Origin: Patescibacteria group bacterium
Lineage (GTDB): Bacteria > Patescibacteriota > Minisyncoccia > Minisyncoccales > JANBVM01
Direction of reading: 5' to 3'
Assembly (NCBI GenBank): GCA_024238995.1
Contig: JANBVL010000004.1
Location: 1 to 53,257, forward strand
Length of the DNA stretch: 53,257 nucleotides
Position 1 is the stretch's first letter, and every line of letters starts with the position of its first letter. The notes under the pieces were generated by a model. It was not told the DNA's origin. It did not search any database and saw only the letters and a list, made by a program, of their open reading frames with translations. Of the stretch, positions 3,268 through 29,095 are shown one piece after another. Both the position numbers and the translations under genes were made by a program.

Positions 3268-3350
3268 TGCCCGGAGTGGGATTTGAACCCACATGGTCAA
3301 AGACCACGACATTTTAAGTGTCGCATGTATACCAGTTCCATCACCCGGGC
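3268..3350 (-). tRNA. tRNA-Leu (anticodon TAA)
   Basis: Class II tRNA. Acceptor gcccggg/tccgggc, anticodon stem cgaca/tgtcg with loop ctTAAaa, long variable arm, T loop ttcaaat. Confidence 0.9.
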
Positions 3351-3354
3351 AAAA

Positions 3355-3834
3355 CTAAGTTTTTTTTCTTCCTCTATGTCCAGGTTTTAAGCTGTGGCAA
3401 TTAGGACAAAGGATTCTAAGATTTTTTAAGCTATTATCATAAGGATCTCCGTTTATGTGATCTAGCTCTAGTGGTAAAAAGCCGTCTTTAGTTTTTTCTG
3501 CCCATCCGCAATCTTCACAATATTGTTCTTTAAGCTCAGCTTTAAATAATCTATTTTTTAATTTGTAGCTTTGAAATGTACTGTTTTTTACTAAAATGTC
3601 ATTTAAAGGTATACGCGGTTTTCCTATACCTTTTAATCCTTTATTCCAGCCTTTTCCTTTTAAATGACTATCATCGATATTATATTCTTTAATATATTTT
3701 CTAATTTGCTTGTAATTACCTCCAGCTTCTCTAAGCCCAAGAATACCCAAAATCTGTCTTATACTCCTTGACTTTTTCACAGCATTTTTTAGCTGTTTTT
3801 CTGTCCAGCTCCTTTTTCTTTTATATTTCGCCAT
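3355..3834 (-). CDS. HNH homing-endonuclease-like protein
   Basis: 159 aa with a C-terminal HNH/zinc motif CEDCGW...LELDHINGDPYDNSLKNLRILCPNCHS. The N-terminal LGL.EAGGNYKQIRKYI...SHLKGKGWNKG module is common in free-standing HNH endonucleases. The stop is 4 nt from the tRNA-Leu 5' end. Confidence 0.8.
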   Translation of the reverse strand: MAKYKRKRSWTEKQLKNAVKKSRSIRQILGILGLREAGGNYKQIRKYIKEYNIDDSHLKGKGWNKGLKGIGKPRIPLNDILVKNSTFQSYKLKNRLFKAELKEQYCEDCGWAEKTKDGFLPLELDHINGDPYDNSLKNLRILCPNCHSLKPGHRGRKKT

Positions 3835-3904
3835 TATATTATTATAATATATGGCAGACGTAAAAGCAAAATAATATCTATTTGTTTGCCTTAATCAAGT
3901 TTTG

Positions 3905-3976
3905 AGGCGTGGGTGGGAATTGAACCCACGTAATCGGTTTTGCAGACCGAGGTCTAAGCCACTTGACTACCACGCC
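3905..3976 (-). tRNA. tRNA-Cys (anticodon GCA)
   Basis: Acceptor ggcgtgg/ccacgcc, anticodon stem tcggt/accga with loop ctGCAaa, T loop ttcaatt. Confidence 0.9.
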
Positions 3977-3980
3977 AAAT

Positions 3981-4349
3981 TTATTCTTCAGTTTGAATAT
4001 TATCTGTTTTTTTCTGCTTTTTCAACTCATCTAAAAGCTTCTCAATCCTATCAGCTTCTTTTGTTTTTGTCTCTTGTCGAAAGATAATTTTAGGAACACG
4101 TTTCATCACCAGTTTTTTATTGAGTTTTTGCTGCAGGTCATAAATGTTTTTATTGAGCACTTTGATAACTAAATCAAATTTTTCCTCTGGTATTACACTA
4201 ATAAAAACATTGGTTTGATTAAAATTAGGAGCAGTTTTTACTTGAGTAACTGTTACTAAAATATCTTTTTCAAAATACCCTTCTTTCAAAAGAAGAGTAG
4301 AGACAGTTTGTTTTATAAGTTTATTGACTTTGTCAATTCGTTTTGACAT
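3981..4349 (-). CDS. rbfA: Ribosome-binding factor A
   Basis: 122 aa. The N-terminus RIDKVNKLIKQTVSTLL is typical of RbfA. It lies immediately downstream of infB (1-nt overlap), which is the conserved synteny. Confidence 0.8.
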   Translation of the reverse strand: MSKRIDKVNKLIKQTVSTLLLKEGYFEKDILVTVTQVKTAPNFNQTNVFISVIPEEKFDLVIKVLNKNIYDLQQKLNKKLVMKRVPKIIFRQETKTKEADRIEKLLDELKKQKKTDNIQTEE

Positions 4350-5839
4350 TAGAGTTCTCCTTTTTTCCTTTCTTTTTTAAAAATTATTAATTCATCTCCT
4401 TTCTCAATCTTTTTTTCTCCTTCGTAAAGTATCCCTACTTCATCTCCTTTAGAACCTTTTTCAATATCTTTTTTGTTTTTTTGAAGATTAATCAATCTTC
4501 CTTGGTCAATTACTTCTCCGTTTCTTGTTACTTCAATTAAAACGCTTTTAGTAATTTCTCCTTCAGTCATTCTTCCTCCGACAATTTGGCGTTTTTTCTC
4601 GCCCCAAAAACCTACCAATACTTTTAATTTACCTAAATTATTTCTTACTACTTCAGGCTCTAAGATTTTTTCCATGTATTTTCTGATTTCCTCAACCAGA
4701 TCATAAATGATTTCAAAATTCATTATCCTGATTTTTTCTTTTTCTGCCAGCCTATTGGCAGTAGAGTTGGCTTTCACTCTGAATCCTAAAACCAGAGCAT
4801 TTCCACTTTTTGCAAACTGAATATCATTTTCATTTATTTGACCAACATCTGATTTTAAAACTTTCAATACAATTTTTTCTTGAGGAAGTTGTTTTAATAT
4901 ATTTTGTATTGCCTCAATTGAACCTAAAACATCAGTTTTAATAATTAAATTCAATGCCTTTTGCCCTTCTTGGAGTTCAACTCTTTTTTCAACCCCTCCT
5001 TTTTCCGGAGTTTTAATATATGCTTCTGCTTGTTTTAAGTTTTCAAAAACTTTAAATGTTTCACCAACTCTTGGCGCTTGATCTAATCCCAAAACAACCG
5101 CTGGATCAGCGGCAGCAGCTTGGAGGATTTGATCTCCTTGAAAATCTTCCAAACTTTTGATTTTTCCAGTTGTTGAAGGTGTAGCAATTATATTCCCTGG
5201 TTTCAATATTCCTTGACTTAAGAGCAAGGTTGCTATTGGCCCTCTTTTGTTGTCTAAATATGACTCTATAATTACTCCTTGAGCTGGTTTTGAATTATCA
5301 GCTTTTAATTCTTCCATTTCAGCTATCAAAAGTATAATATCTAAAAGGTCTTCAATGCCTTGACCTGTTTTTGCAGAAACATTAACTGAAGGCACTTTTC
5401 CTCCTAAAGATTCAACAATAATTCCTTGTTTTTCTAACTGCCCTTTTGCTTTTTGGGGATCAGCTTCTGGCCTATCCATTTTATTAAAGGCAATTATTAA
5501 AGACACTTTAGAATTTTTAATATGTTCAATAGCTTCTTTGGTTTGAACTTGAACTCCTTTTGTGCTGTCTATTACTAAAACAGCAATATCAGCTATTTTT
5601 GCTCCACGAGACCTCATTTGAGAAAAAGCCTCGTGTCCAGGAGTATCAATAAAGGTAATTTTTTTATTATTTTTTCGAACTTGATAAGCACCAATATGCT
5701 GGGTTATTCCACCAGATTCTTTTTCAGTAACTTTAGTTTTTCTTATTTGGTCCAATAAGCTTGTTTTACCGCTATCAATGTGCCCCAAGATTACTACGAC
5801 CGGAGGTCTAGTTATTAAATTTTCATTTTCTTTTGTCAT
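4349..5839 (-). CDS. infB: Translation initiation factor IF-2 (short form lacking the long N-terminal region)
   Basis: 496 aa with GTPase motifs GHIDSGKT, DTPGH and NKMD. The C-terminal IF-2 domains are present (LNLIIKTDVLGSIEAI). Confidence 0.95.
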   Translation of the reverse strand: MTKENENLITRPPVVVILGHIDSGKTSLLDQIRKTKVTEKESGGITQHIGAYQVRKNNKKITFIDTPGHEAFSQMRSRGAKIADIAVLVIDSTKGVQVQTKEAIEHIKNSKVSLIIAFNKMDRPEADPQKAKGQLEKQGIIVESLGGKVPSVNVSAKTGQGIEDLLDIILLIAEMEELKADNSKPAQGVIIESYLDNKRGPIATLLLSQGILKPGNIIATPSTTGKIKSLEDFQGDQILQAAAADPAVVLGLDQAPRVGETFKVFENLKQAEAYIKTPEKGGVEKRVELQEGQKALNLIIKTDVLGSIEAIQNILKQLPQEKIVLKVLKSDVGQINENDIQFAKSGNALVLGFRVKANSTANRLAEKEKIRIMNFEIIYDLVEEIRKYMEKILEPEVVRNNLGKLKVLVGFWGEKKRQIVGGRMTEGEITKSVLIEVTRNGEVIDQGRLINLQKNKKDIEKGSKGDEVGILYEGEKKIEKGDELIIFKKERKKGEL

Positions 5840-6223
5840 TTAAATCTCTTTTCTTTTAATTCTCGTTTTTTTAGCAATTTCTATTGCTTTTTTTTCTTCT
5901 TCAGACAGACTGTGATGTGAGTGGCCTTTTTTGATTGGTTTGCCAAACATCCTGTTTCCTTCTCTGCTATAAAAACTGGTAATCACCACGCCATTATTAT
6001 TCCCATCTAAAAGTGCAATAGAAAAGCTTTGATTTCCACCTAAATCTTTAAAAGGATTAAATCTAACAACTCCCATTTTTTGAACAGAAAACACAGACTC
6101 TTTTTTCAAATAATCCAATTCTTTGGACACTTTTCTAAATTCTTTTTTTAAAGACTTAAACTCTCCAATAACTTGTTTCCAATTTTTAGGATCAATATCT
6201 TCTTTTTTAAAAAGTTCAAACAT
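5840..6223 (-). CDS. DUF4446-family protein
   Basis: The listed ORF extends to 6292 across a tRNA, so the start was trimmed to ATG 6223 (MFELFKKEDI). The core VVRFNPFKDLGGNQSFSIALLD..NGVVITSFYSREGNR matches my memory of DUF4446. Confidence 0.65.
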   Translation of the reverse strand: MFELFKKEDIDPKNWKQVIGEFKSLKKEFRKVSKELDYLKKESVFSVQKMGVVRFNPFKDLGGNQSFSIALLDGNNNGVVITSFYSREGNRMFGKPIKKGHSHHSLSEEEKKAIEIAKKTRIKRKEI

Positions 6224-6255
6224 AGTATGGGTTATTAGATTAATTATACAAGAAG

Positions 6256-6339
6256 CGGTGGGGGCGAGAGTCGAACTCGCATAGGTTTTCACCCGCCGCT
6301 TTTCGAAAGCGGTTCCTTGCCGATTCGGAACACCCCACC
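6256..6339 (-). tRNA. tRNA-Ser (anticodon CGA)
   Basis: Class II tRNA. Acceptor ggtgggg/ccccacc, anticodon stem ccgct/agcgg with loop ttCGAaa, long variable arm, T arm gcgag-ttcgact-ctcgc. Confidence 0.85.
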
Positions 6340-6380
6340 AGTAGCAGAATTAATAGATAATCTTAAATAAAATATGTTTA

Positions 6381-6409
6381 AATTTATCACAGAATACACT
6401 TAAAATCAA
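6381..6409 (-). promoter_or_regulatory. Candidate promoter (TTGATT-17-TAAATT on the minus strand) upstream of tRNA-Ser
   Basis: Reverse complement reads ttgatt, then 17 nt, then taaatt, about 40 nt upstream of the tRNA-Ser 5' end. Such matches are easy to find in AT-rich DNA. Confidence 0.3.
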
Positions 6410-6446
6410 TTTATTAAGGAGATGAATAGTGATATACTCATAGAAC

Positions 6447-7427
6447 ATGAAAAACATTAAAGTAGCTATTATTGGAGTTGGAGGAAGAACTGGCACAATG
6501 TTTGCTTTTGAACTTAAAAATAGAGCTAGTGTTTTAGGCGTGGCAAAGGAAAAAGAAATTGAACTGATAGCGCAGAAAAAATTATATATTCAGAGGAAAG
6601 AACAAGAGCCTCAGTTGTTTGACTGCAAGGTTATAAAAGATAGTGATTTCAATTCTGATTTAGCTCCAGACATTATTTTCGTGACAACAAAAAACCCAGT
6701 TTACAGTGTTGTTAAATATTATTTTGAAAAATTTAAAAATGATAAGACGCCTGTTCTTTTTCTTTCCCAGAATGGCATCGATGCTTTAAATGACGCAAAA
6801 AAAGCTTTGCAAGATATTTATGGTCAGAGAGCAAAAGATATTACTATTATTAGGTCTGTTTTATTTAATCCAATAGATATTAAAATAGAAAACAGCAATA
6901 TATATGTAAAATATTCTTTGCCAATACGCATTGCTGTTTCAAAAGCACAAGGGAAGTTAAACGTTGAAGATGTTTTTAAAACTTTTAAAAATGCTGGTTT
7001 TGAAATTCAGGAATTTCCACAGGAAAATGCCAGGAATTTAGAATTTTCAAAATTATTTTTGAATTTAATCGGAATGGTAAGCGCTTCCCATAATTTGTCA
7101 GTGAAAAATGGCTTTAAAGATAAAAACATTTTTCAACAAGAAGTAAAAGTTTTAAAAGAATACGTCAGGGTTGTTAAAAAATCTAATGGAAGATTTATTA
7201 ATTTCTCAAACTATCCAGTAAAAACATATTGTTTTTTAATTGATTTAATTCCAATGTTTTTTTTAGTGCCTATTCGCAACATTTTAGCTAGATTTATTTC
7301 TAAAGGAAGAGAAAAAAAAGCAAAGGATTTAGATGAAATAGAATATTATAATGGCGCTGTTGTTAAATTAGGAAAGACTATCGGAGTTAATACTCCGATC
7401 AATGAACTCGTTCTAAAACGAGTTTAA
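6447..7427 (+). CDS. Ketopantoate reductase (ApbA/PanE)-family NAD(P)-binding oxidoreductase
   Basis: 326 aa with an N-terminal Rossmann motif KVAIIGVGGRTG. The overall layout (IIFVTTKN...LFLSQNG) resembles the 2-dehydropantoate 2-reductase family. The substrate is unknown. Confidence 0.5.
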   Translation: MKNIKVAIIGVGGRTGTMFAFELKNRASVLGVAKEKEIELIAQKKLYIQRKEQEPQLFDCKVIKDSDFNSDLAPDIIFVTTKNPVYSVVKYYFEKFKNDKTPVLFLSQNGIDALNDAKKALQDIYGQRAKDITIIRSVLFNPIDIKIENSNIYVKYSLPIRIAVSKAQGKLNVEDVFKTFKNAGFEIQEFPQENARNLEFSKLFLNLIGMVSASHNLSVKNGFKDKNIFQQEVKVLKEYVRVVKKSNGRFINFSNYPVKTYCFLIDLIPMFFLVPIRNILARFISKGREKKAKDLDEIEYYNGAVVKLGKTIGVNTPINELVLKRV

Positions 7428-7450
7428 AATGATTCTAAGAGTTAATTTTG

Positions 7451-7523
7451 TGGGCAATGTAGGACTTGAACCTACGACCTCGTCGATGTAAGCGACGCGC
7501 TCTAGCCACTGAGCTAATTGCCC
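7451..7523 (-). tRNA. tRNA-Val (anticodon TAC)
   Basis: Acceptor gggcaat/attgccc, D arm gctc-agtggcta-gagc, anticodon stem cgtcg/cgacg with loop ctTACat, T loop ttcaagt. Confidence 0.9.
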
Positions 7524-7556
7524 CTATTTATTTTTTTATGGACGTGTCTTTGAAAG

Positions 7557-7640
7557 TGGGCGAGGGGAGAATCGAACTCCCACGGGAAAAATCCCCTTGA
7601 AGCCTCAGTTCAAGCTGTCTACCGATTCCAGCACTCGCCC
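7557..7640 (-). tRNA. tRNA-Leu (anticodon GAG)
   Basis: Class II tRNA. Acceptor gggcgag/ctcgccc, anticodon stem ttgaa/ttcaa with loop ctGAGgc, variable arm gggg..ccc, T arm gggag-ttcgatt-ctccc. Confidence 0.9.
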
Positions 7641-8303
7641 ATTTAATCTTAATTTTCTATCCAATTCCTCATTGTCAATCCTTATTATATTTTTCAATTT
7701 TATATATTTTCGTTTCAGGTGGGGTAGATTTCTTTTATAATACATTTTTGAAATCAATACCTTTGATTCTTTCTTGGCATACTTCAATTGCCAACATCTT
7801 TTGCCAGCAGTAATGTATCCATTGATTTTTAAAAGTTTTTTGATTTTAGATTGTATCCACTTCAGATGAAGCAAGCTTCCTGTTGTAAATGTTGTGTAAA
7901 ACATAAAACTACTTCTCCATCTTTTATCCCAATAACTATAACAACTTCCATCTCCGTCAAAATGACCTCTTAAAAAGTCAAAAAAGTATTGATTAGGGAT
8001 TTTAAGTTTTCCTATTGTTTTGCTTTTATTTGGGGTTAATCCAATACTAACTAACCATCTATAAAGAACAACGTCGCTGAATTGAACTTTAGGATATTTT
8101 TTCTCTGTGAAACCACTAGTTTTCCATCCTATTTTATTATTAATGCCAACACATTTTTTAAAGGCGTTAATCAATTCTTTATCTTTTGAAGTGAAATCTA
8201 TATGCCTTCCATCATTATATAAACACCCGTCCGCTGTTATAAGGCCAACAGCATAAGCAATTTCCGGAGACCATTTAATTGGTTGTTTTCTCTTGGGTTT
8301 CAT
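7605..8303 (-). CDS. Double-motif LAGLIDADG homing-endonuclease-like protein
   Basis: Two LAGLIDADG motifs are present, AYAVGLITADGCL and FDFLRGHFDGDGSC. The start is either ATG 8303 (MKPKRK) or the listed 8363. The 3' end (7605-7640) lies inside tRNA-Leu(GAG) and the 5' end overlaps the rplS tail. Confidence 0.8.
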   Translation of the reverse strand: MKPKRKQPIKWSPEIAYAVGLITADGCLYNDGRHIDFTSKDKELINAFKKCVGINNKIGWKTSGFTEKKYPKVQFSDVVLYRWLVSIGLTPNKSKTIGKLKIPNQYFFDFLRGHFDGDGSCYSYWDKRWRSSFMFYTTFTTGSLLHLKWIQSKIKKLLKINGYITAGKRCWQLKYAKKESKVLISKMYYKRNLPHLKRKYIKLKNIIRIDNEELDRKLRLNGRVLESVDSLN

Positions 8304-8829
8304 TTTGTTTTTCTTGAGAAGTTTGTTCAGCTTTTTTTTCTGTAGTTGGCTCTGTTTTTTCAACTGGTTTTTTTGATTCTTGAGTTTCTTGTGCTAACTC
8401 AGGTTTTATCTCTGACTGCTCATCAACAACCTCTTTTTCTGGCTCTTCGGCAACAACTTCAACAAATTCTTTTCTTTTTAACCTTGCTCTTTTACCTTTC
8501 GCTGTTCTTAAGAAATAAAGCTTTGCTCTTCTTGTTTTGCTTCTTCTTAAAACCTCTATTTTATCAATAGATGGCAAGTGTAAAGGGAATATCCTTTCAA
8601 CTCCAACACCACTAATTACTTTTCTCACTGTAATTGTTGCTCCGATTTCTTTTCCATGCTTTTTTGCAATAACTATTCCTTCAAAAGTCTGGATTTTTTC
8701 TTTTGCTTCTTCTCCTTTCTTTTTTGCTTCCTCTTTTACTTTTTGATAAACCTTTACTGTATCACCAGGCTTTATATCAGGAATTTTCTTTTTTAAAAAT
8801 GGTTGTATTAATTCTTTTATTTGTTTCAT
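8275..8829 (-). CDS. rplS: 50S ribosomal protein L19 with a ~64-aa K/E-rich C-terminal extension
   Basis: The core PGDTVKVYQKV...IQTFEGIVIAKKHG...ATITVRKV..GVGVERIFPLHLP.I..IEV is classic L19. Residues 121-184 are a low-complexity acidic/lysine tail. Confidence 0.9.
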   Translation of the reverse strand: MKQIKELIQPFLKKKIPDIKPGDTVKVYQKVKEEAKKKGEEAKEKIQTFEGIVIAKKHGKEIGATITVRKVISGVGVERIFPLHLPSIDKIEVLRRSKTRRAKLYFLRTAKGKRARLKRKEFVEVVAEEPEKEVVDEQSEIKPELAQETQESKKPVEKTEPTTEKKAEQTSQEKQNETQEKTTN

Positions 8830-10648: not shown

Positions 10649-10662
10649 AACACCTCTTAAAA

Positions 10663-12552: not shown

Positions 12553-12638
12553 TATTTATTGTTTGTTCCATTAAAATATCTGTGTTAAAATGAACTAATG
12601 AATATTAGTTTCAATAACGATAATTCAATTGTTCGACT

Positions 12639-13301
12639 ATGGCCCGTTTAAAAGATCACGAAAAAGCCCTTGCTTTAAGGAAAAAGGAAATGAGCTATAG
12701 TCAGATAAAAGATGTTTTAAGGGTTAGTAAAAGCACTCTGAGTGTTTGGCTGAGAGATCATCCTTTGTCTAAAAAAAGAATAAGAGAGTTAAGAGATAGA
12801 AACGAACGAAGAATAGAAAGGTTCAGAGATACGATGAGAAAAAAGAAGGAAAAGAGACTTGATAAAACTTATAAACTTCAGAAGAATTTAATCTTGCCTT
12901 TAAGCAAGCGAGAGGCTTTTATTGCAGGTTTGTTTCTTTACTGGGCAGATGGATCAAAGTATAGAGCCGACCATCTATCCCTCTCAAATACAGACCCTTC
13001 TATGATCCAATTTTTTATTTATTGGCTCAATAAATGCCTTAAAGTACCTAAAAAGAAAATGCGAGTAGTGATGCATTTATATAGCGACATGCATATAGAC
13101 AGAGAAATGAAATACTGGTCGAAAACGATTAAAATTCCTTTAGAACAATTTAGTCGTCCTTATATTAAAAAAACTTTAAGCGAAAGGATTAATCATAAAG
13201 GAAGTTTTGGTCATGGAACTTGTAATTTAAGAGTGAATAGTGTTCTTCTTGCAGAAAAAATTATTATGGGATTAAAGGCAATTGCCGATGAATACAAATA
13301 A
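12639..13301 (+). CDS. HTH plus single-motif LAGLIDADG-like protein (homing-endonuclease-related), paralog of 21169-21843
   Basis: N-terminal HTH (MSYSQIKDVLRVSKSTLSVWL). The central FIAGLFLYWADGSK is a LAGLIDADG-like motif, followed by SNTDPSMIQFF. tRNA-Ile begins 13 nt downstream. Confidence 0.6.
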   Translation: MARLKDHEKALALRKKEMSYSQIKDVLRVSKSTLSVWLRDHPLSKKRIRELRDRNERRIERFRDTMRKKKEKRLDKTYKLQKNLILPLSKREAFIAGLFLYWADGSKYRADHLSLSNTDPSMIQFFIYWLNKCLKVPKKKMRVVMHLYSDMHIDREMKYWSKTIKIPLEQFSRPYIKKTLSERINHKGSFGHGTCNLRVNSVLLAEKIIMGLKAIADEYK

Positions 13302-13314
13302 AGAGATTTTAATA

Positions 13315-13387
13315 GCGCACGTAGCTCAGTGGTAGTAGCACAGATCTTATAAGTCTGTGGTCGCTGGTTCGATTCCAGCCGTGCGCA
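13315..13387 (+). tRNA. tRNA-Ile (anticodon TAT)
   Basis: Acceptor gcgcacg/cgtgcgc, anticodon stem cagat/gtctg (one G-U) with loop ctTATaa, T arm gctgg-ttcgatt-ccagc, discriminator A. The D stem has one mismatch. Confidence 0.8.
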
Positions 13388-13393
13388 CATTAT

Positions 13394-13467: not shown

Positions 13468-13468
13468 C

Positions 13469-14188: not shown

Positions 14189-14190
14189 AA

Positions 14191-19639: not shown

Positions 19640-21172
19640 TTAGGCTTCCCCCCTTTCTTTTTCAGTTACCCAAAAGCCCAGATATTTTTTAAACATTAAT
19701 CTGGTTTGGGCGTCAAGTGAAGGAATACCTCCGAAAAAAATCAAAGTTAAAGGCAAAAACAACCATTGAAGCAGTATTGAAAGATTTTTGAACTTACTGG
19801 TCCCTTTTGGTCTTTTAGGAAGAATCAAAAGACTGATTATTGAAGATACAATCATTCCAATCATAGATATTCTCATTAAGTTGGTTGTAAATCTAGGCAG
19901 ATTATATGACAACATTGTTACATTGAATTTTTCACCTCCAAGCATTAAAGGAAGCCAACCCAGAAAAAAGATTAAAAAAGAAGCAGTTGTCCATGACCAA
20001 AATCCGTCTAAAACATTAAATGAATATGAGATTTTTTTTGAAAGGGCTATTTTTTTGTTTTTTAAAAATCCATAGATCATGAATGGAATGTCATTACAGC
20101 CCCAGGCCCATCTTCTTTGTTGCTTGTATTGATTAATAATTGTTTTAAATAAATTCTTGGCCAATACTGCATCCATGGAAACAGGATAATACAAAGGAAT
20201 TACCCTGTAATCGCCATCATAGAAAAGATAGGATTTCCAAAAAATCCTTGAATCATCAGAAACAACATTTTTTGGATAACCCACTTCTTCCAAAACTTTA
20301 AATGGCGTTGAATGGGATGAGTAGGTAACAAGTATTTCTGGTCTTTCCTGCTGCATCATCTGCCAGAAAGTGCCTGAAGTAGCAATAACCCGGGAAAATG
20401 CCGGTGCTTTCCAGATATTATTATTGTAAACCGGAATAGGTTGGTAAGAACAACGTTGTGGATTTTCAACTGTTAAAAAATGATATGTTAGACATGAAAA
20501 GTATTGGGGATATGGTTTTGTATCAATATCAAAAGTTGAGACAATAATATTATCTTTGTCCATATCAAGAGGTTCAATTATTTCTTGTTTTGCTTTTTTA
20601 ATTGCCCAAGTTGTGTTTGATCCTTTGCCAGCTACTTCAGATTCTAAATTTTGGGGATGAGTTGTAACTAAAAATTTAAAGAATTTTGAAGAAAATTTTT
20701 CTTTCATTTGGCTTGCTATAATTTGCGCCTCTTTTCCCGCTCTTTCCTCTACTGACAATACAATCATTATTTTTTCTTTTGGATAATCTGAATCTAACAT
20801 TGCTTGGCAGGAACTTTCAATAATCTCTTTATTCTCTTTATAAAATGGAAGAATTATTAAATGGTAAATTTGGTCCCAGCCATTAATTTGAGAAACTTTT
20901 TTAAACCAGTCAATTCCAAGATTTTTTTTCATTTTATTGAAACTTGCTATCTGGTGAAATGATAAATAACCTATTTTCAAAAGCCAGTAAAAATCAAAAA
21001 GGATTATAAAGATTGCTACTATTATTGGTGATAGCCATGAAAAGAAAAAAGAGCCTAGTAAGGTTAACCAGGACAAAAGTCCAGGAAGGATTTCCAAAAA
21101 TCTATATATAACTCTTTGTTTGGGATTTTCTAAATCTTCGGCTTTAGAAAGAGATAAATAGTTTTTGTTCAT
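19640..21172 (-). CDS. Membrane-embedded family-2 glycosyltransferase (processive synthase-like)
   Basis: 510 aa with N- and C-terminal TM bundles flanking a cytoplasmic GT-A-like domain (IMIVLSVEERA, STFDIDT, QQRRWAWG resembling QxxRW). Confidence 0.6.
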   Translation of the reverse strand: MNKNYLSLSKAEDLENPKQRVIYRFLEILPGLLSWLTLLGSFFFSWLSPIIVAIFIILFDFYWLLKIGYLSFHQIASFNKMKKNLGIDWFKKVSQINGWDQIYHLIILPFYKENKEIIESSCQAMLDSDYPKEKIMIVLSVEERAGKEAQIIASQMKEKFSSKFFKFLVTTHPQNLESEVAGKGSNTTWAIKKAKQEIIEPLDMDKDNIIVSTFDIDTKPYPQYFSCLTYHFLTVENPQRCSYQPIPVYNNNIWKAPAFSRVIATSGTFWQMMQQERPEILVTYSSHSTPFKVLEEVGYPKNVVSDDSRIFWKSYLFYDGDYRVIPLYYPVSMDAVLAKNLFKTIINQYKQQRRWAWGCNDIPFMIYGFLKNKKIALSKKISYSFNVLDGFWSWTTASFLIFFLGWLPLMLGGEKFNVTMLSYNLPRFTTNLMRISMIGMIVSSIISLLILPKRPKGTSKFKNLSILLQWLFLPLTLIFFGGIPSLDAQTRLMFKKYLGFWVTEKERGEA

Positions 21173-21843
21173 GTTCGTTGGATCAATCCGTCAATCCAGC
21201 CTCTTATTTGGAAGAATTTACGTCTATTATAAACTCGTATGCTAAGCACTCCATTAGGAAGAGAATTTTTTGAACGTTTTCCTTTACTTGCTTTACTTAT
21301 TTGACGCGTGATACGGAAACGACTTGGAGAAATGTTTGTAGTTGTACTCCAAAAATTAAGAGTTGATTGTTCATTGATATTTGGGTGAATTCGAATAGAT
21401 ACTTTGATTTTCTCTTCAGGAGTTTCAAGAATTTCTTGTAGGAAACGAAGAAATAAAATAATCATATAAGGGTCAGAGTTTACGAAATCAACATAAGGGC
21501 TTTTACTTTTGAGTTGTTTTTTATATCCTTCTCCCCAATAGAGAGCAGTACCGATCAATAATAATTCATGTTTCGACAGTAAACGAATTTGATCTGCTGA
21601 TTTTTTTCTAATTTGTTTATTTTCAAGTTGTACGATACGGTGTCGTTTTTTATTGTATGCTACCAATAAAGATTGACTGGCTTTGGTCTTTTTTTTAAGA
21701 ATTCTTTGTATTTTTAAAGGTAGTTTTAAGTTTTTACACCATCTACTAACTGAACTTTTACATACACCTGTAATTTTTGAAATTTCTCTATAGCTTTCCC
21801 CTTTTAATCTTAAATCAATTACGTTTTGATGTTGTAGATGCAT
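21169..21843 (-). CDS. HTH plus single-motif LAGLIDADG-like protein, paralog of 12639-13301
   Basis: N-terminal HTH (ESYREISKITGVCKSSVSRWC), then LIGTALYWGEGYK and VNSDPYMIILFLRFL motifs colinear with the 12639 protein. tRNA-Glu lies 14 nt upstream and there is a 4-nt overlap with the GT2 gene. Confidence 0.6.
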   Translation of the reverse strand: MHLQHQNVIDLRLKGESYREISKITGVCKSSVSRWCKNLKLPLKIQRILKKKTKASQSLLVAYNKKRHRIVQLENKQIRKKSADQIRLLSKHELLLIGTALYWGEGYKKQLKSKSPYVDFVNSDPYMIILFLRFLQEILETPEEKIKVSIRIHPNINEQSTLNFWSTTTNISPSRFRITRQISKASKGKRSKNSLPNGVLSIRVYNRRKFFQIRGWIDGLIQRT

Positions 21844-21857
21844 ATAATTTTAATTAG

Positions 21858-21929
21858 TGACCCCAGCGGGAGTCGAACCCGCCTTGTTGGATTGAAAATC
21901 CAAAGTCCTGACCGATAGACGATGGGGCC
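21858..21929 (-). tRNA. tRNA-Glu (anticodon TTC)
   Basis: Acceptor ggcccca/tggggtc, D arm gtct..ggac as in E. coli tRNA-Glu, anticodon stem ttgga/tccaa with loop ttTTCaa, T loop ttcgact. Confidence 0.9.
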
Positions 21930-23074: not shown

Positions 23075-25182
23075 AATCAAAACTAGCAAAAACATACGAT
23101 CCTAAAAATGTTGAAGATAGAATTTATGAGTTTTGGATGAAAACTGGTTTTTTTAATCCTGATAAATTACCTGGAAAAAGAAAAAAACAATATTGTATTA
23201 CTATTCCTCCGCCAAACGTAACAGGCAATCTCCATATGGGCCATGCTTTGCAATCCACTATTCAGGATATCTTGATCAGGTGGAAGCGGTTAAAAGGCTA
23301 TAAGACTTTATGGCTTCCTGGAACAGACCATGCTGGCATAGGAACTGAAGCTAAGGTTAAAAAACAACTGATTAAGGAGGGTAAAACAAGAGAAGAATTG
23401 GGCAGAGAGAAGTTTATTGAACGTATTTGGCAGTGGAAAGAAAAATACGGAAACATTATTTTAAATCAATTTAAAAGGATGGGTTGTTCTTTGGATTGGT
23501 CAAGAATAAGATTTACAATGGATGAAGATTACTCTAAAGCAGTTAAAAAAACATTTTTACATTATCATAAAAAAGGATTAATTTATCAGGCAGAAAGACC
23601 TGTTAATTGGTGCATTAAATGTAAAACAAGTTTATCAGATCTTGAATTGGAACGTAAAGAAAAAGATTCAAAGCTTTGGTATATAAGATACCCGATTAAA
23701 CAGGATAAAAAAATAAAAAGTGAAAAACAAGAATATATTACAGTTGCAACAACAAGGCCTGAAACAATGCTAGGTGATACTGCAGTAGCAGTAAATCCCA
23801 AAGACAAAAAATACAAAAAGTTTATTGGCAAATCAGTGATTTTGCCTTTTGTGCGCAGAGAAATTCCGATTATTGCTGACAGAATGGTTGATATTGAATT
23901 TGGCACAGGGGCAGTGAAAGTTACTCCAGCTCACGACCCAAAAGATTATATTATGGGAATTGCTCATAAATTAAGAATGATAAAAGTGATTAACGAAGAG
24001 AATAAAATGAGTGACAAAGCTCCTTTAAACTACATTGGTCTTAAGGTTTCAGAAGCAAGGGAAAAAATTATTAATGATTTAAATAAATTGGGCTTAATCG
24101 AAAAAATAGAAGATTATATCCATCAGGTTCCAAAATGTTATCGTTGTAATTCAATTATTGAAATTGTCCCTTCTAATCAATGGTTTATGAAAATGGATAA
24201 ATTGGCGAAAATGGCTGAAAAAGAAGTTAAAAGTGGAAGAATCAAGTTTTATCCTAAAAGATTTGAAAAAACATATTTTGATTGGTTGTCCAATATACAT
24301 GATTGGTGCATTTCAAGACAGATTTGGTGGGGGCATAAAGTTCCTATTAAAGGTTCAGATGACGTATTGGATACATGGTTTTCTTCAGCCTTATGGCCTT
24401 TTGCAGTACTTGGCTGGCCTAAAAAAACAAAAGATTTAAAAACATATTATCCGACAAATGTTTTAACAACCGCAAGAGACATTATCAATTTATGGGTGGC
24501 AAGAATGGTTTTTTCTGGAATGGAATTTATGAAGAAAAAGCCCTTTGATCGTGTATACGTTCATCCAACAATTTTAGCTAAAGATGGCAGAAGAATGTCC
24601 AAATCATTGGGAACAGGTATTGATCCTTTGGATTTGATTGATAAATATGGAGCTGATGCCACTAGATTTGGTTTGTCTTGGATTTTAACTGGAGCACAAG
24701 ATGTTAGGTTTAATGAAGATACAATTATTATGGGCAAAAAGTTCTGCAATAAGATTTGGAATGCAACAAGATTTGTAATAATGCAGGTTGGAGATAAAGA
24801 GATACAAGTTCCGACCAAAGTTCAAATTTCAAAATTAAAACTTTCAAAGAATGAAAAAAAGATTTTAAGTTCAATTAAAAAAACAACTAAATCTATTGAT
24901 AAATATTTAGATAAATTTGAGTTTGGTCAGGCATCACAAGCTTTGTATGATTTTTTCTGGCGTGAATTCTGTGATAAGTGCATTGAAGATTCTAAAAAAA
25001 CATTAACTAAAGCAAAAACTGAAAAAGAAAAATTAAAAACAAAAAAAGTGTTGCTTTATGCTTTAATTTCTTCTTTGAAATTACTTCATCCATTTATTCC
25101 GTTTATTACTGAAGAAATTTACCAAAATCTTCCTATTAAAAAGAAAAAAGAGTCTCTAATGATAGAGGAGTGGCCAGTATAA
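23071..25182 (+). CDS. valS: Valine--tRNA ligase (short form, no C-terminal coiled coil)
   Basis: 703 aa with PPPNVTGNLHMGHAL (HIGH), the editing-domain signature TTRPETMLGDTAVAVNP and KMSKSLGT. There is a 4-nt overlap with tsaD. Confidence 0.9.
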   Translation: MKSKLAKTYDPKNVEDRIYEFWMKTGFFNPDKLPGKRKKQYCITIPPPNVTGNLHMGHALQSTIQDILIRWKRLKGYKTLWLPGTDHAGIGTEAKVKKQLIKEGKTREELGREKFIERIWQWKEKYGNIILNQFKRMGCSLDWSRIRFTMDEDYSKAVKKTFLHYHKKGLIYQAERPVNWCIKCKTSLSDLELERKEKDSKLWYIRYPIKQDKKIKSEKQEYITVATTRPETMLGDTAVAVNPKDKKYKKFIGKSVILPFVRREIPIIADRMVDIEFGTGAVKVTPAHDPKDYIMGIAHKLRMIKVINEENKMSDKAPLNYIGLKVSEAREKIINDLNKLGLIEKIEDYIHQVPKCYRCNSIIEIVPSNQWFMKMDKLAKMAEKEVKSGRIKFYPKRFEKTYFDWLSNIHDWCISRQIWWGHKVPIKGSDDVLDTWFSSALWPFAVLGWPKKTKDLKTYYPTNVLTTARDIINLWVARMVFSGMEFMKKKPFDRVYVHPTILAKDGRRMSKSLGTGIDPLDLIDKYGADATRFGLSWILTGAQDVRFNEDTIIMGKKFCNKIWNATRFVIMQVGDKEIQVPTKVQISKLKLSKNEKKILSSIKKTTKSIDKYLDKFEFGQASQALYDFFWREFCDKCIEDSKKTLTKAKTEKEKLKTKKVLLYALISSLKLLHPFIPFITEEIYQNLPIKKKKESLMIEEWPV

Positions 25183-25218
25183 TGTGTGATTGTTTTAATC
25201 GAGCACAGGTTTGATAGG

Positions 25219-27309
25219 TTATTCGAGATGAATTGTTTTCCCAAATTGCTTAATCTTATCTGCCAAGAGCGGATTTTTTTTAAGAGTTGGGTCTTGTTTT
25301 AAAGTTTCTTTTGCCCAAAAGCGTGTTTTCTCAATTAATTCTACATCTTTTAAAGAAGCCATTATTAAATCAGGAATTCCCCATTGCCGAATACCAAACA
25401 TGTCACCAGGTCCTCTTATAGCCAAATCTTTTTCTGCTAATTCAAAGCCATCATTTGATTTAAGTAGCGCTTGCAAGCGCCGGGTAGTTCCTATTTCTGA
25501 AGTGCTGGTAAATAGAAAACAATAGGATTGATCTTCCCCTCTTCCTGTCCTTCCTCTGAACTGGTGAAGCTGGGCTAAACCAAATCTTTCAGCTCCTTCA
25601 ATAATCATTATTGTTGCATTTTCGATATCAATACCGACCTCTACTACTGAAGTTGAAACTAAAACATTGGTTTTTCCTGATTTAAAACCTTTCATTATTT
25701 GTTGTTTTTCTTTGCTTTTTAATTTTCCATGAAGCATTCGCACTTTTAGTTTAGGAAAGATTTTTTGTGATAATTTTTCATATTCTTCTTTTACAGCTGT
25801 TACTTCTGACCAATCACCACTTGTTTGTTTTGGTTCTATTCGCGGGCAAACCACAAAGACTTGTTTTCCTTTTTTAACTTCACTTTTAATGAATTCATAA
25901 ACTTTTTGCCTGCCCTTTGGTTTGATTAGCTTTGTGATGATTTTTTTTCTTCCTTTTGGCAGTTCATCTAAAATTGACAAGTCTAAATCTCCATAAATTG
26001 TTAAAGTCAAAGTTCTTGGAATTGGAGTAGCTGTCATTGAAAGCAGGTGGGGGACAATGTTTTTTTGCTGACATAATTTAGCCCGTTGTTCAATTCCAAA
26101 ACGGTGCTGTTCATCTAAAATTACTAAAGCTAAGTTTTTGAATTTTACATTTTCTTGAATTAAAGCATGCGTTCCAATTAGAATATCAATTTCTCCGCTT
26201 TTAATTTGTTCTATAAGCTTTTTCTTTGTTGTTTTTTTGTTAATTACCTTATAGCCAGTTCTAGTTAATAATCCGATTTTAAGATTAAATTTTTTCAAAG
26301 CATTTGAAATGTTTTTAAAATGCTGTTCAGCTAATATTTCTGTTGGAGCCATAAAAGCAGTTTGAAAACCAGCTTTAGCTGTGTTTAAAGCTGCAATGAC
26401 AGCTACAACTGTTTTTCCAGAGCCAACATCTCCTTCTAATAATCTGTTCATTGGCCTTGGTTTTTCTAAGTCTTTTAAAATCTGCCAGCTCGATTTTCTT
26501 TGAGCAGTAGTAAGTTTAAATGGCAGACTCTTAACAAAGCTTTTAGTTGTTTCTAAATTAAATGGAATTTGTACGGCTTGTTTTTGTTTTAATTTTAATT
26601 TTTCCATTAAAACATTTAACTGAATGAAGAATATTTCCTGAAAAGAAAATCTTTTTCTTGATTGTTCAGCTAAAGCATTGGAATCTGGAAAATGAACCTG
26701 CCAAAGAGCTTTATTTAAAGGCAGTAATTGATTTTCATTCTGGATGAATTCAGGCAAAGGATCTTTGATTTTATTTTTAAAATTAGCTAAAAGCGGTCTT
26801 ATAATATATCTTAGCCAGCGGGATGATAGCCCCTCTGTTTCTGGATAAACTGGGATTAATCCTCCTGTGTGAATTAGGTTTTTTTGTTCATCTTCAGATA
26901 ATTTTTCATGAACTGGGCTCGATAAATAAACTCCGGGAAAATATTTTTTATTTAAAGCTATTTTTCCTGCTAAGCAAACTGAAGCACCAGGCTTTAAACT
27001 GTCAACTAAATAGGGTTGATTAAACCAGATTGCTTTTATTTCTCCAGAATCATCTTCAATTGTTGCTTTTGTTAAAACAAACCGCCTTTTTCTTGTGATA
27101 ATATTTTGAATATCTGTTATTTTGCCTTGAATACAAACTTTTTCATCAGCTTTAACTTCGGCTATTGGTGTTAAATCAGAAAAATCCTCATAGCGATGAG
27201 GAAAATGAAATAATAAATCAGAAATAGTTTTAATTCCTAATTTGTTTAATTTTTTTTGATACTGAGGACCAACGTGTGGTATTTTCTCAATAGGAGTTGA
27301 TAGATTCAT
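25219..27309 (-). CDS. recG: ATP-dependent DNA helicase RecG
   Basis: 696 aa with an N-terminal wedge/OB region. Helicase motifs are GDVGSGKT, ILDEQHRFG, SMTATPIPRT and QLHQFRGRTGRG. Confidence 0.9.
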   Translation of the reverse strand: MNLSTPIEKIPHVGPQYQKKLNKLGIKTISDLLFHFPHRYEDFSDLTPIAEVKADEKVCIQGKITDIQNIITRKRRFVLTKATIEDDSGEIKAIWFNQPYLVDSLKPGASVCLAGKIALNKKYFPGVYLSSPVHEKLSEDEQKNLIHTGGLIPVYPETEGLSSRWLRYIIRPLLANFKNKIKDPLPEFIQNENQLLPLNKALWQVHFPDSNALAEQSRKRFSFQEIFFIQLNVLMEKLKLKQKQAVQIPFNLETTKSFVKSLPFKLTTAQRKSSWQILKDLEKPRPMNRLLEGDVGSGKTVVAVIAALNTAKAGFQTAFMAPTEILAEQHFKNISNALKKFNLKIGLLTRTGYKVINKKTTKKKLIEQIKSGEIDILIGTHALIQENVKFKNLALVILDEQHRFGIEQRAKLCQQKNIVPHLLSMTATPIPRTLTLTIYGDLDLSILDELPKGRKKIITKLIKPKGRQKVYEFIKSEVKKGKQVFVVCPRIEPKQTSGDWSEVTAVKEEYEKLSQKIFPKLKVRMLHGKLKSKEKQQIMKGFKSGKTNVLVSTSVVEVGIDIENATIMIIEGAERFGLAQLHQFRGRTGRGEDQSYCFLFTSTSEIGTTRRLQALLKSNDGFELAEKDLAIRGPGDMFGIRQWGIPDLIMASLKDVELIEKTRFWAKETLKQDPTLKKNPLLADKIKQFGKTIHLE

Positions 27310-27315
27310 AAAGAA

Positions 27316-27792
27316 CTATAAATTAAAAATTGGCAAAGAGAAAGGTTTTTCTTTGTGTTTTAAATAAAGCTTAATGATTTCATAATGGTCAAAACCAAAT
27401 TCTTCAGGCTTCGGCAAGTTGTTGAGATCAAACCAAACCACTTCACTTATCTCATTATCAGGTTCAGAGACTTTTTCTTTTGCTTCAATTAAATAAACAA
27501 AATCTACATTTTGTTTGTCTTCTCCTTTTCTGTCTGGATTACTATTAATTCTAAATAAAGAAACTATTTTTCCTTTATAACCAGTTTCTTCTTCAAATTC
27601 TCTCAAAGCACCCTGGCTTATGGTTTCATTTCTATCTAAATAGCCTCCTGGCAAGGCATATTTATTAGGATGAGCTGGTGTATCAGAAGCGCGTTTAACA
27701 AGAAGAATTTCATTGTTTTTAATAACAATATTATCTACAGTAATGTGTCTTAAAAATGCTTTATTGTTGTTTTCGAAAAAACAAGTAATCAT
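27316..27792 (-). CDS. NUDIX hydrolase
   Basis: 158 aa with the Nudix box GGYLDRNETISQGALREFEEETG. Confidence 0.85.
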   Translation of the reverse strand: MITCFFENNNKAFLRHITVDNIVIKNNEILLVKRASDTPAHPNKYALPGGYLDRNETISQGALREFEEETGYKGKIVSLFRINSNPDRKGEDKQNVDFVYLIEAKEKVSEPDNEISEVVWFDLNNLPKPEEFGFDHYEIIKLYLKHKEKPFSLPIFNL

Positions 27793-27813
27793 ATTTATTA
27801 TTTTATATTAATG

Positions 27814-27885
27814 TGTCCCCAAGAGGAGTCGAACCTCTATCAATTGCTCCGCAAGCAATTACTTTATCCATTAAGCTATGGGGAC
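27814..27885 (-). tRNA. tRNA-Arg (anticodon GCG)
   Basis: Acceptor gtcccca/tggggac, D stem gctt/aagt, perfect anticodon stem attgc/gcaat with loop ttGCGga, T arm agagg-ttcgact-cctct. Confidence 0.85.
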
Positions 27886-27958
27886 TATATGATAAAAATA
27901 TCATAAAATTAAGCTTAAATCAATTGACTTTATTAGTTCAGAGAATTAAAATGGAATA

Positions 27959-28990
27959 ATGAGCGAATCTTTAAAAAGAAATAAGAATTTTGAAAAAAGG
28001 GTTATTTTTCTTCCTAGAAAACAACAGAAATTTTTGTTAAAAGCGTTAAATAATTTAGATGTTTCTTGGCTTGAGCTTGCTGAAAAAATTAAAGTGCATA
28101 AGAGAACATTAAATGACTGGAAAAGAGAAGAATATTCTATGCCCCTTGATGTAGTAAAGAGGATATCTAATATTGCAAAGATGACAATGCCAACTGATAT
28201 AGAAATTAAAGATCCGTTTTGGTACGTTGATAAAGGCAGTAAAATAGGTGCTAACCTTGGCGCGATAGCCTGTATTCAAAAATACGGCTATGTAGGCGGA
28301 AACCCCGAATATCGAAAGAAAAAATGGTATGAGTGGTGGAAAAGAGAGGGAAAATATAAATATAATTTTTTGGGGGCGTATAAACCAGTTAACAAGCCTG
28401 ATTTTTCTAGAGAGCTTGCAGAATTCGTAGGGATTGTTTTAGGCGATGGAGGAATTAGCAAAAGGCAAATTATAGTGACGTTAAATAGCGAAACCGATAA
28501 AGAATACGGCGATTTTGTATATAAATTAGCGAAAAAGTTATTTAAGATTCATGTTGGTATTTCTTATGATAGAAAATGCAGAGCAGTAAGATATATTCTT
28601 TCTAGAAGTAAATTAGTTAGATTTTGTGTTCAAAGGCTTGGATTAAAACAGGGAAGTAAAGTAAAACAACAAGTAGATGTTCCTGAGTGGATTAAAAAAA
28701 ATAAACAATATAGTATTTCTTGTGCCAGAGGTTTGATTGATACTGATGGCAGTGTTTTTACTCATCGTTATAAAGTTGGTGGAAAATACTATAGTTATAA
28801 GAAACTTTGTTTTACAAATTATTCTAAGCCCCTTGTTCAATTTGTGTTTAACACTCTCAAGCAGAATGGGTTAAGAGCTAGAATATCTAGAGATATAGAT
28901 GTGTGGCTTGATAGTAAAGAAAGCATGGAAAAATATCTCCAAATATTTAGTTTTCATAATGTAAAGCATTTGAAAAGGTACAAAAGTTAA
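27959..28990 (+). CDS. Double-motif LAGLIDADG homing-endonuclease-like protein with N-terminal HTH-like region
   Basis: 343 aa with motifs AEFVGIVLGDGGIS and CARGLIDTDGSV. The N-terminal LAEKIKVHKRTLNDWKR is HTH-like. It is flanked by tRNA-Arg upstream and tRNA-Ser 19 nt downstream. Confidence 0.8.
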   Translation: MSESLKRNKNFEKRVIFLPRKQQKFLLKALNNLDVSWLELAEKIKVHKRTLNDWKREEYSMPLDVVKRISNIAKMTMPTDIEIKDPFWYVDKGSKIGANLGAIACIQKYGYVGGNPEYRKKKWYEWWKREGKYKYNFLGAYKPVNKPDFSRELAEFVGIVLGDGGISKRQIIVTLNSETDKEYGDFVYKLAKKLFKIHVGISYDRKCRAVRYILSRSKLVRFCVQRLGLKQGSKVKQQVDVPEWIKKNKQYSISCARGLIDTDGSVFTHRYKVGGKYYSYKKLCFTNYSKPLVQFVFNTLKQNGLRARISRDIDVWLDSKESMEKYLQIFSFHNVKHLKRYKS

Positions 28991-29009
28991 GGTAGTATAC
29001 ATAAAATAA

Positions 29010-29095
29010 GGAGGAGTCGGATAATGGTCATTCCACCAGTTTGCTAAACTGTGCCGCTTAAACGCGGCTTGTGAGTTCGAATCTCACCTCCTCCG
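29010..29095 (+). tRNA. tRNA-Ser (anticodon GCT)
   Basis: Class II tRNA. Acceptor ggaggag/ctcctcc, anticodon loop ttGCTaa (one mismatch at the top of the stem), variable arm gccgc..gcggc, T arm gtgag-ttcgaat-ctcac. Confidence 0.85.

Follow-up and report, generated by a model that had tools for sequence, protein, structure and literature searches.

The 53,257-bp stretch of DNA analysed here, an entire contig (C4) of a Patescibacteria group bacterium and hereafter called the window, carries five free-standing genes that each abut an intact transfer RNA (tRNA) gene. We read them, with a probability of roughly 65%, as homing endonuclease genes that have specialised in the boundaries of tRNA genes and are expressed as part of tRNA transcription units. 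Nine such copies lie next to tRNAs in the genome as a whole, and the best explanation is that all nine are free-standing selfish nuclease genes of four families, namely an HNH family, two double-motif LAGLIDADG families and one family that joins a helix-turn-helix (HTH) domain to an uncharacterised C-terminal domain. Their niche is likewise best explained as the tRNA gene boundary, usually a few bases ahead of tRNA position 1. Homing endonuclease genes in cellular genomes are thought to persist mainly inside self-splicing introns or inteins; here four families seem to have found a third refuge at the 5' edge of a tRNA gene, where routine tRNA processing can free the host RNA. The pattern suggests that selfish genes have a hitherto undescribed means of coexisting with essential genes without harming them. 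That five genes abut intact tRNAs had been noticed in a sequence-only reading of the window, and all the open reading frames (ORFs) and spacings it gave proved right to within one base. The genes and their neighbouring tRNAs, the latter found by both ARAGORN and Rfam, are as follows.

3355–3834, minus strand: free-standing HNH endonuclease gene, 159 aa, with tRNA-Cys on one side and tRNA-Leu(taa) on the other
3267–3350, minus strand: tRNA-Leu(taa), beginning 4 nt past the HNH stop codon
3904–3976, minus strand: tRNA-Cys(gca), which ends 69 nt before the HNH start codon
7605–8303, minus strand: free-standing double-motif LAGLIDADG gene, 232 aa from a conserved ATG, its last 36 nt inside tRNA-Leu(gag)
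7556–7640, minus strand: tRNA-Leu(gag), partner of the 7605 gene
12639–13301, plus strand: gene for an HTH plus an unknown domain, 220 aa, between the ftsH stop codon and tRNA-Ile(tat); matches HTH_23 only
13315–13388, plus strand: tRNA-Ile(tat), partner of the 12639 gene, 13 nt past the gene end
21169–21843, minus strand: HTH-family paralogue, 224 aa, inserted precisely where tRNA-Glu(ttc) ends and the ATG of the following gene begins; matches HTH_28 at 8.8e-6
21857–21929, minus strand: tRNA-Glu(ttc), 13 nt upstream of the 21169 gene
27959–28990, plus strand: free-standing double-motif LAGLIDADG gene with an HTH_3 domain, 343 aa, flanked by tRNA-Arg(gcg) and tRNA-Ser(gct)
29010–29097, plus strand: tRNA-Ser(gct), partner of the 27959 gene, 19 nt past the gene end
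27813–27885, minus strand: tRNA-Arg(gcg), divergent upstream neighbour of the 27959 gene

Adjacency was measured against a baseline of 646 crude ORFs of at least 70 aa in the genome, 39 of which lie within 50 nt of a tRNA. A tblastn search within the genome returned four extra copies on other contigs, all four abutting a tRNA. The genome was also scanned for HNH, LAGLIDADG_1, LAGLIDADG_3 and GIY-YIG domains, which further revealed a LAGLIDADG_1 ORF in 23S ribosomal RNA (rRNA), a dehydrogenase intein and an HNH_5 gene; GIY-YIG (PF01541) had no match anywhere in the genome. Nine of the 39 tRNA-proximal ORFs are free-standing nuclease-like genes, a class with 10 members in the whole genome; the hypergeometric P value of ~4e-11 for this excess overstates the case because paralogues are not fully independent. 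We then searched this genome (G000) and 40 relatives for each family and scanned the returned loci for tRNAs. Across the four families 56 of 60 copies adjoin a tRNA, and the earlier suspicion that the juxtaposition exceeds chance was thereby confirmed both genome-wide and in relatives. The position is also stereotyped, with the 3' end of the gene lying at the 5' end of a co-oriented tRNA (within ~60 nt of it or overlapping it) in 50 of 60 copies.

The HTH family is present in 19 of the 41 genomes (G000 included) at 1–4 copies each, and all 28 full-length copies, 24 from relatives and four from our own genome, adjoin a tRNA; three matches from the 41-genome search were left out of this locus analysis. 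Of the 28, 22 end at -48 to +57 nt relative to the 5' terminus of an ordinary tRNA in the same orientation; three directly follow tRNA-Glu(ttc), and the last three lie 4–32 nt before a tRNA-Thr(tgt) or tRNA-Asn(gtt) gene that is split by a group I intron. In a phylum sample made up of an even draw of 300 genomes plus G000, the family was found in 63 of 301 genomes, at up to nine copies, and a confirmed tRNA stands at the end of 27 of the 29 best loci outside G000 (22 by ARAGORN, one by Rfam alone and four with an Rfam-confirmed group I intron). One of the remaining two is unconfirmed, and the other has just 269 nt of contig downstream. The top copy number, nine HTH-family matches, was observed in genome G279, of the same class.

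Copies of the other families keep similar company. The HNH family occurs in five of the 41 genomes, and all five copies precede a tRNA. Matches to the 7605 family were found in 18 of the 41 genomes (G000 included); 14 of its 21 copies directly precede a tRNA (Leu gag, cag or taa, Cys, Asp or Phe) and three directly follow tRNA-Leu, giving 17 of 21 in all. Eight LAGLIDADG-profile matches in frames of 1078–1464 aa were excluded as inteins, judged by frame length alone. All six copies of the 27959 family, one of them a fragment, precede tRNA-Ser (gct, gga or cga). True matches to this family occur in five of the 41 genomes, the raw tally of 12 having been inflated by tRNA-Ser and intein artefacts; columns 350–397 of alignment A2 proved to be read-through tRNA-Ser and not protein, and matches there were dropped.

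Orthologous tRNA loci were compared in relatives, as had been proposed for defining the insertion junctions, and precise empty sites were found in three same-genus genomes (G001–G003) that are collinear with the window at ~75–87% DNA identity, with junctions read at base level. G002 and G003, which are 94–97% complete, lack an insert at every one of the five window sites, and G001 lacks one at four of them, sharing only the gene at tRNA-Leu(gag). At tRNA-Cys|tRNA-Leu(taa), G001–G003 have no HNH gene and a spacer of 6–10 nt, which is replaced by the insert in the window. The 12639 insert of ~765 nt is missing from the same three genomes, whose ftsH|tRNA-Ile spacer is 9–12 nt, and where the window has the 21169 gene, their tRNA-Glu(ttc) runs from its last base straight into the ATG of the next gene (0 nt); the stop of the 21169 gene overlaps that ATG. 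The 7605 site is occupied in G001, at 79% protein identity, and the 27959 site, empty in G001–G003, is occupied in G009. Orthologues of the 21169 gene likewise follow tRNA-Glu(ttc) in G039 and G031, and G019 has a 68%-identical HNH gene at the same tRNA-Cys|tRNA-Leu(taa) junction. Different families use this one junction: its occupant is HNH in G000 and G019 but LAGLIDADG in G020, G031 and G007. The converse case is also seen, since the window has an empty site where three other genomes hold an HTH-family gene. This site and three further features that bear on the inserts are listed here.

2429–2578, plus strand: tRNA-Phe and tRNA-Gly(gcc), 2 nt apart; empty site in the window, HTH-family gene there in G001, G022 and G038
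3227–3261, minus strand: terminator-like hairpin just past tRNA-Leu(taa), a 16-pair stem and a T run (consensus match)
8275–8829, minus strand: rplS, ribosomal protein L19 with a long tail (Pfam Ribosomal_L19, 1.7e-36)
27924–27952, plus strand: promoter-like site TTGACT, 17 nt, TAAAAT, with 10 of 12 consensus matches, 6 nt before the ATG of the 27959 gene

The genes also show signs of decay. Internal stops were found in the contig-10 copy of G000 and in copies of G008, G027 and G038, and short remnants remain at loci L039 and L074; in this genome the ORF is intact in eight of nine tRNA-adjacent copies. Pseudogenes, remnants and patchy distribution together fit an invasion–decay cycle of homing endonuclease genes, a cycle that the part of the literature used here describes as known for such genes (PMC3984707).

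The remaining copies of this genome sit just as close to their tRNAs. The stop of the third HTH-family copy overlaps tRNA-Arg(tcg) by one base, the fourth (contig 10), with an internal TAA, ends 43 nt before tRNA-Thr(tgt), and the stop codon of the contig-5 paralogue of the 7605 gene touches tRNA-Leu(cag). The contig-5 paralogue of the 27959 gene (29881–30963; locus L009, 881–1963) has an ORF that traverses the entire tRNA-Ser(gga) and stops 46 nt past it; its G001 orthologue likewise reads through the tRNA, and the G019 copy extends 48 nt into its tRNA. An mRNA from which the tRNA of such a read-through ORF had been excised would have no stop codon, and this could act as an inherent check on the nuclease. 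At the other end of an insert, the rplS stop falls 29 nt within the 7605–8303 ORF. Sharing its last 29 nt with the beginning of the LAGLIDADG gene, rplS seems to have had its end remodelled by the insertion; the tail of L19 is ~70 aa long and rich in Lys and Glu. In metagenomes, one contig (run X2) covers ftsH, the 12639 gene and tRNA-Ile at ~87% identity, and pieces of the 27959 gene occur at ~95% identity in runs X3 and X4, which were chosen using that gene, so that a comparison of flanks is invalid there.

An insertion sequence or transposon was considered and rejected as the source of the inserts, which have no common repeat pattern and no transposase catalytic domain by Pfam, the 23 C-terminal domains of the HTH family included; terminal inverted repeats or target duplications consistent among the five window inserts were not found. 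An imperfect 17-nt inverted pair (82% complementary; 12570–12586 and 13297–13313) lies near the ends of the 12639 insert only and may be chance in AT-rich DNA. A leftover front half of the tRNA upstream of the gene was likewise rejected as a general feature, scoring above all non-isotype controls at three of 46 loci and at none of the five window genes. The three loci with such an upstream stub comprise two contig-5 copies, at tRNA-Ser(gga) and tRNA-Leu(cag), and the G038 copy at tRNA-Thr(ggt).

Protein phylogeny and partner tRNA agree closely. On a maximum likelihood tree of 28 HTH-family proteins the partner-tRNA label changes 14 times, with a minimum of 13 and a mean of 22.5 after shuffling (0 of 200 shuffles as low); sister clades sit on the isoacceptors Arg tcg/tct, Ile tat/gat and Thr ggt/tgt, and copies of a single genome are spread over different clades. 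The tree of 17 proteins of the 7605 family requires seven changes, equal to the minimum of seven (shuffled mean 12.1; 0 of 200 as low), and a tRNA-Leu(cag) copy is nested within the tRNA-Leu(gag) copies. These trees offer indirect evidence that the partner tRNA may be part of the insertion address, each protein subfamily keeping to one tRNA species, the evidence being indirect because old vertical inheritance with many losses could give equal agreement. The sequence-only reading had proposed that tRNA genes or their flanks are the homing targets, and this proposal gained indirect support from the empty sites, the match between clade and tRNA and the junction common to different families.

The nuclease families of three window genes were confirmed by profile searches, as predicted from the letters alone. 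The HNH gene matches Pfam PF01844 at 25.1 bits (cut-off 21.4) and PHROG 10822 at 2e-40, and the His-Asn-His and Cys-x-x-Cys elements are readable in its translation, placing it in the HNH group. The 7605 gene matches LAGLIDADG_3 (PF14528) at 30.8 bits (cut-off 22.5) and PHROG 4645 at 3e-30, and the 27959 gene matches the same Pfam model at 27.8 bits (cut-off 22.5). Both genes also came up in the genome-wide scan, and both have two LAGLIDADG motifs, in which the Asp of each is invariant relative to the respective contig-5 paralogue, the motif layout of the monomeric double-domain type. Rfam found no group I intron in the window, in keeping with the claim that the genes stand outside introns; the group I introns of the genome are confined to its 23S rRNA, and no tRNA intron was detected. 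For the 12639 and 21169 genes, which had been called HTH-LAGLIDADG-like, the HTH domain and the paralogy stood (27% identity, E 5e-19), and the LAGLIDADG part gained no support from Pfam, profile comparison or PDB Foldseek.

The expression context is clearest at the 27959 gene. The TTGACT-17-TAAAAT element ahead of it is kept in the gene-less G001–G003, where it lies directly ahead of tRNA-Ser(gct). Because the element is conserved and the ATG lies 6 nt past the -10 box, we conclude that the insert sits between the tRNA-Ser promoter and its tRNA. The insert of G001 between tRNA-Phe and tRNA-Gly has a TTGACA-17-TAAAAT of its own. No terminator-like hairpin was found between any of the five window genes and its tRNA (gaps of 4–19 nt), and the hairpin at 3227–3261 would terminate a tRNA-Cys/HNH/tRNA-Leu transcription unit. 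Promoter and terminator scans here are consensus matches, and the simplest reading of them is that gene and tRNA would be co-transcribed and the tRNA freed by ribonuclease P (RNase P). The idea that the genes exploit tRNA promoters and processing was thus supported for the 27959 gene, through its conserved promoter, and is structurally plausible for the others, through their terminator-free gaps.

These observations suggest the following course of events. The enzyme would cut an empty allele in or beside the tRNA gene, and repair from a gene-bearing copy, with DNA taken up from a relative as the likely donor, would insert the gene. The insert would be transcribed with the tRNA, either from the promoter of the tRNA or from one that the insert carries, and end-processing by RNase P would release the intact tRNA, so that the host would lose nothing, without any intron or intein. 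The resident tRNA allele is probably shielded by the group I intron where the partner tRNA has one, which recalls collaborative homing in phages.

Several findings weigh against this homing reading, in addition to the ambiguity of the tree evidence. The HNH_5 gene, the lone exception in the genome, lies on another contig 10.8 kb from the nearest tRNA, and four of the 21 copies of the 7605 family have no adjacent tRNA. Promoter-like matches are not clearly above the shuffled background (50 vs 36.7 +/- 6.8; 40 vs 35.8 +/- 6.8), and a weak promoter-like site lies within the 3' end of the 27959 gene. Nor was the notion that the tRNA is cargo of the gene supported, as tRNA-Ile(tat) genes beside HTH genes have a mean identity of 69%, versus 78% for a gene-less set drawn from closer genomes. 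Such findings leave room for a passive safe harbour, in which dispensable or selfish genes pile up in tolerant, well-transcribed tRNA spacers and the tRNA sequence is not a target. In a genome that is 91% coding, short tRNA spacers are among the few insertion-tolerant places; four unrelated families share the one niche, ordinary genes too lie 0–50 nt from tRNAs (30 of the 39 ORFs are non-nuclease), and the promoter-like predictions are weak. We nevertheless consider a passive harbour unlikely, for it does not account for protein clades that keep to one tRNA species across host families, with the nearest clades on isoacceptors, for a 27959 family found solely before tRNA-Ser (6 of 6), or for the stereotyped position and orientation of the 50 genes of 60 that end at a tRNA 5' end. 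Domestication, under which the proteins would serve the host in transcription, processing or quality control of the adjacent tRNA, had also been suggested from the sequence. A tight and conserved tRNA linkage and eight intact ORFs out of nine in this genome speak for it, but the two same-genus genomes of 94–97% completeness have none of the five window genes at the corresponding sites, the HTH family is confined to 19 of 41 genomes and to 63 of 301 in the phylum sample, its copies number anywhere from 0 to 9, partner tRNAs vary, and pseudogenes and remnants are common. We therefore regard a domesticated role as very improbable, and this suggestion was not supported.

The remaining findings against the homing reading concern the C-terminal domain of the HTH family. 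Pfam matches of the 12639 and 21169 proteins are confined to N-terminal HTH models, and none of 23 C-terminal domains of the family matches the LAGLIDADG model at E <= 1. Comparison with a LAGLIDADG alignment by hhalign gave 3% probability, the aligned stretch being the motif helix, and a PDB search with Foldseek yielded nothing at E <= 0.001, with LAGLIDADG enzymes missing from its 50 best matches. Since Pfam, hhalign and PDB Foldseek were all negative, we do not class the two genes as LAGLIDADG. The best Foldseek template modelling (TM) score in the PDB is ~0.42, to OmpA-like domains, a sequence-profile search of the PDB gave HTH matches only, a protein atlas search yielded no significant assignment, and tblastn of the 12639 protein against phages gave no match at E <= 0.001. 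The domain is nonetheless modelled with confidence by AlphaFold2, with a predicted local distance difference test (pLDDT) score of 92 for the full 12639 protein, and of 91 for the C-terminal domain alone together with a predicted TM score (pTM) of 0.84. Its first helix ends in an invariant Y-W-x-E-G and is followed by a strand with an invariant Asn and Asp, an arrangement reminiscent of a single LAGLIDADG motif and its active-site layout. The family comprises at least 4930 sequence clusters at E <= 1e-5, whose members bear only the source names of hypothetical proteins, HTH proteins, transcriptional regulators or transposases.

These data allow that the HTH family is not an endonuclease at all, being instead a sequence-specific DNA-binding regulator of the adjacent tRNA unit, or a new recombinase or insertion protein, with mobility through another activity. 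The match to transposase- or regulator-type HTH models only, the database names, and a confident C-terminal model (pLDDT 91, pTM 0.84) that has no significant PDB neighbour all agree with such a role. On the other side stand the Y-W-x-E-G helix and the invariant Asn/Asp strand, which look like a LAGLIDADG-type active-site layout, and the viral structure library (BFVD), in which all matches were sub-threshold and LAGLIDADG or intein endonucleases made up 10 of the top 50. In presence/absence pattern, decay and niche the family moreover matches the genuine HNH and LAGLIDADG genes, and no terminal inverted repeats or target duplications were consistently found. A role other than cleavage seems to us rather unlikely, though with an appreciable chance of being correct. 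The C-terminal domain is not demonstrably a nuclease; the two window genes behave like bona fide nuclease genes.

Orthologous tRNAs of the four same-genus genomes (loci L084–L091) are bimodal, being either 94–100% or 62–75% identical, and the groupings vary by tRNA: for Leu-tag G000 equals G002 and G001 equals G003, and for Ser-tga G000 is close to G003 and G001 to G002. Protein-coding DNA flanking the tRNAs is ~75–87% identical within the genus. This suggests that tRNA alleles may be frequently exchanged or replaced within the genus. The window allele of tRNA-Leu(gag) is only 64–71% identical to same-genus alleles. A consensus acceptor stem was found in none of four tRNA-Leu(gag) genes with a LAGLIDADG neighbour and in five of seven gene-less ones (one-sided Fisher P 0.045, uncorrected for relatedness), a difference that would fit repeated allele replacement or escape from cleavage and is only a lead. 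Introns enter the picture as well, with seven HTH-family copies in other genomes directly preceding tRNAs that bear a group I intron. The decayed copy of G000 precedes an intron-less tRNA-Thr(tgt), and the G007 and G008 copies at intron-bearing tRNA-Thr(tgt) sit in another clade. A bolder view, which we put forward tentatively and hold to be possible although the odds are somewhat against it, is that the HTH family is a new structural class of tRNA-dedicated homing endonuclease and forms, with the HNH and LAGLIDADG genes, a phylum-wide gene drive that cuts tRNA genes, uses RNase P in place of splicing, sometimes cooperates with tRNA group I introns and continually replaces tRNA alleles. Continual replacement would explain both the bimodal identities and the incongruent groupings.

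The host genome measures 642,545 bp in 15 contigs and is rated 100% complete. ARAGORN found 16 tRNAs at window positions 2253–29237, 15 of them also found by Rfam at the gathering score. The genome has 40 tRNAs in total, with anticodons that all differ except in two cat (Met-type) genes, and the anticodons of the 16 window tRNAs occur nowhere else in it, from which we conclude that these tRNAs are the cell's own. A phage origin of the contig was ruled out by the unique-anticodon tRNAs, by the housekeeping genes (HtrA-like protease, IF-2, RbfA, L19, S1, FtsH, GyrA, TsaD, LeuRS and RecG) and by megablast, which found no match between the first 25 kb of the window and a phage collection. Homologues of the studied genes bear source names from Patescibacteria lineages. 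ARAGORN did not find tRNA-His, tRNA-Trp, tRNA-Tyr or tRNA-Thr(ggt) on the 15 contigs, loci that may be unassembled; in relatives these four are partners of HTH-family or HNH genes. AUA is mostly decoded in bacteria by a modified CAU tRNA, and the tRNA-Ile with anticodon TAT (UAU) at 13315–13388, present in relatives across the phylum, is thus unusual for bacteria. Beyond the tRNAs, at 30616–53257, large ORFs all run in one direction, among them one of 1185 aa at 40743–44300 and an open-ended frame of more than 1060 aa at 50078–53257.

Elsewhere in the genome, the rRNA operon on contig 10 (6744–15692; locus L092) is lengthened by protein genes, with two between 16S and tRNA-Ile(gat), one of them overlapping the tRNA by 10 nt, and two between tRNA-Ala and 23S. 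The 23S rRNA is ~1.1 kb beyond model length, with one group I intron above threshold and a second, weak intron match; the LAGLIDADG_1 ORF inside it is 168 aa long. On contig 14 (2183–4306) a UDP-glucose/GDP-mannose dehydrogenase is split by an intein with a LAGLIDADG_3 endonuclease domain (707 aa).

Should the homing reading be borne out, it would assign a function to a very large unannotated protein family of Patescibacteria, make tRNA loci the recombination hot spots of these streamlined genomes and offer a natural route to mobile tRNA introns. It would also provide a set of compact nucleases whose targets, ~20 bp long, have diversified naturally and lie in known sequences; the specificity rules could be read from the clade-to-tRNA map.

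Full-text literature searches turned up no account of endonuclease families that flank tRNAs in Patescibacteria, although supplementary files could hold such observations. The passages used here on SegB of phage T4 describe a free-standing GIY-YIG homing endonuclease between the tRNA-Arg and tRNA-Ile genes of a phage tRNA cluster, whose target lies in the tRNA intergenic region and which drives preferential inheritance of that region (PMC2988022). In these passages the logic is that of our tRNA-Cys|tRNA-Leu and tRNA-Phe|tRNA-Gly inserts. SegB, however, is there a single phage case of the GIY-YIG family, whereas here a cellular genome without a GIY-YIG match has four other families, with dozens of partner tRNA species and a stereotyped position at the tRNA 5' end. 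Collaborative homing in phages, in the portion of the account drawn on (PMC3984707), resembles the HTH-family genes that stand before an intron-bearing tRNA, an arrangement to be expected if the intron shields the resident allele; unlike in that system, the target here would be a tRNA gene and not a protein gene, most partners are intron-less, and the HTH family is a putative nuclease. Within the phylum, rRNA genes of the Candidate Phyla Radiation (CPR)/Patescibacteria are described, in the sections consulted, as carrying intron-encoded LAGLIDADG endonucleases, with endonuclease genes also in rRNA operon spacers (PMC8172020, PMC7143001). Judged from those sections, phylum, enzyme superfamily and the preference for highly conserved RNA genes are shared, but the rRNA endonucleases sit in self-splicing introns, whereas the genes described here lie outside any intron or intein and would rely on tRNA end-processing. 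A homing endonuclease within the group I intron of a bacterial tRNA is alike in having a tRNA gene as its target, and the genes of the window differ from it in standing free, ahead of the tRNA.

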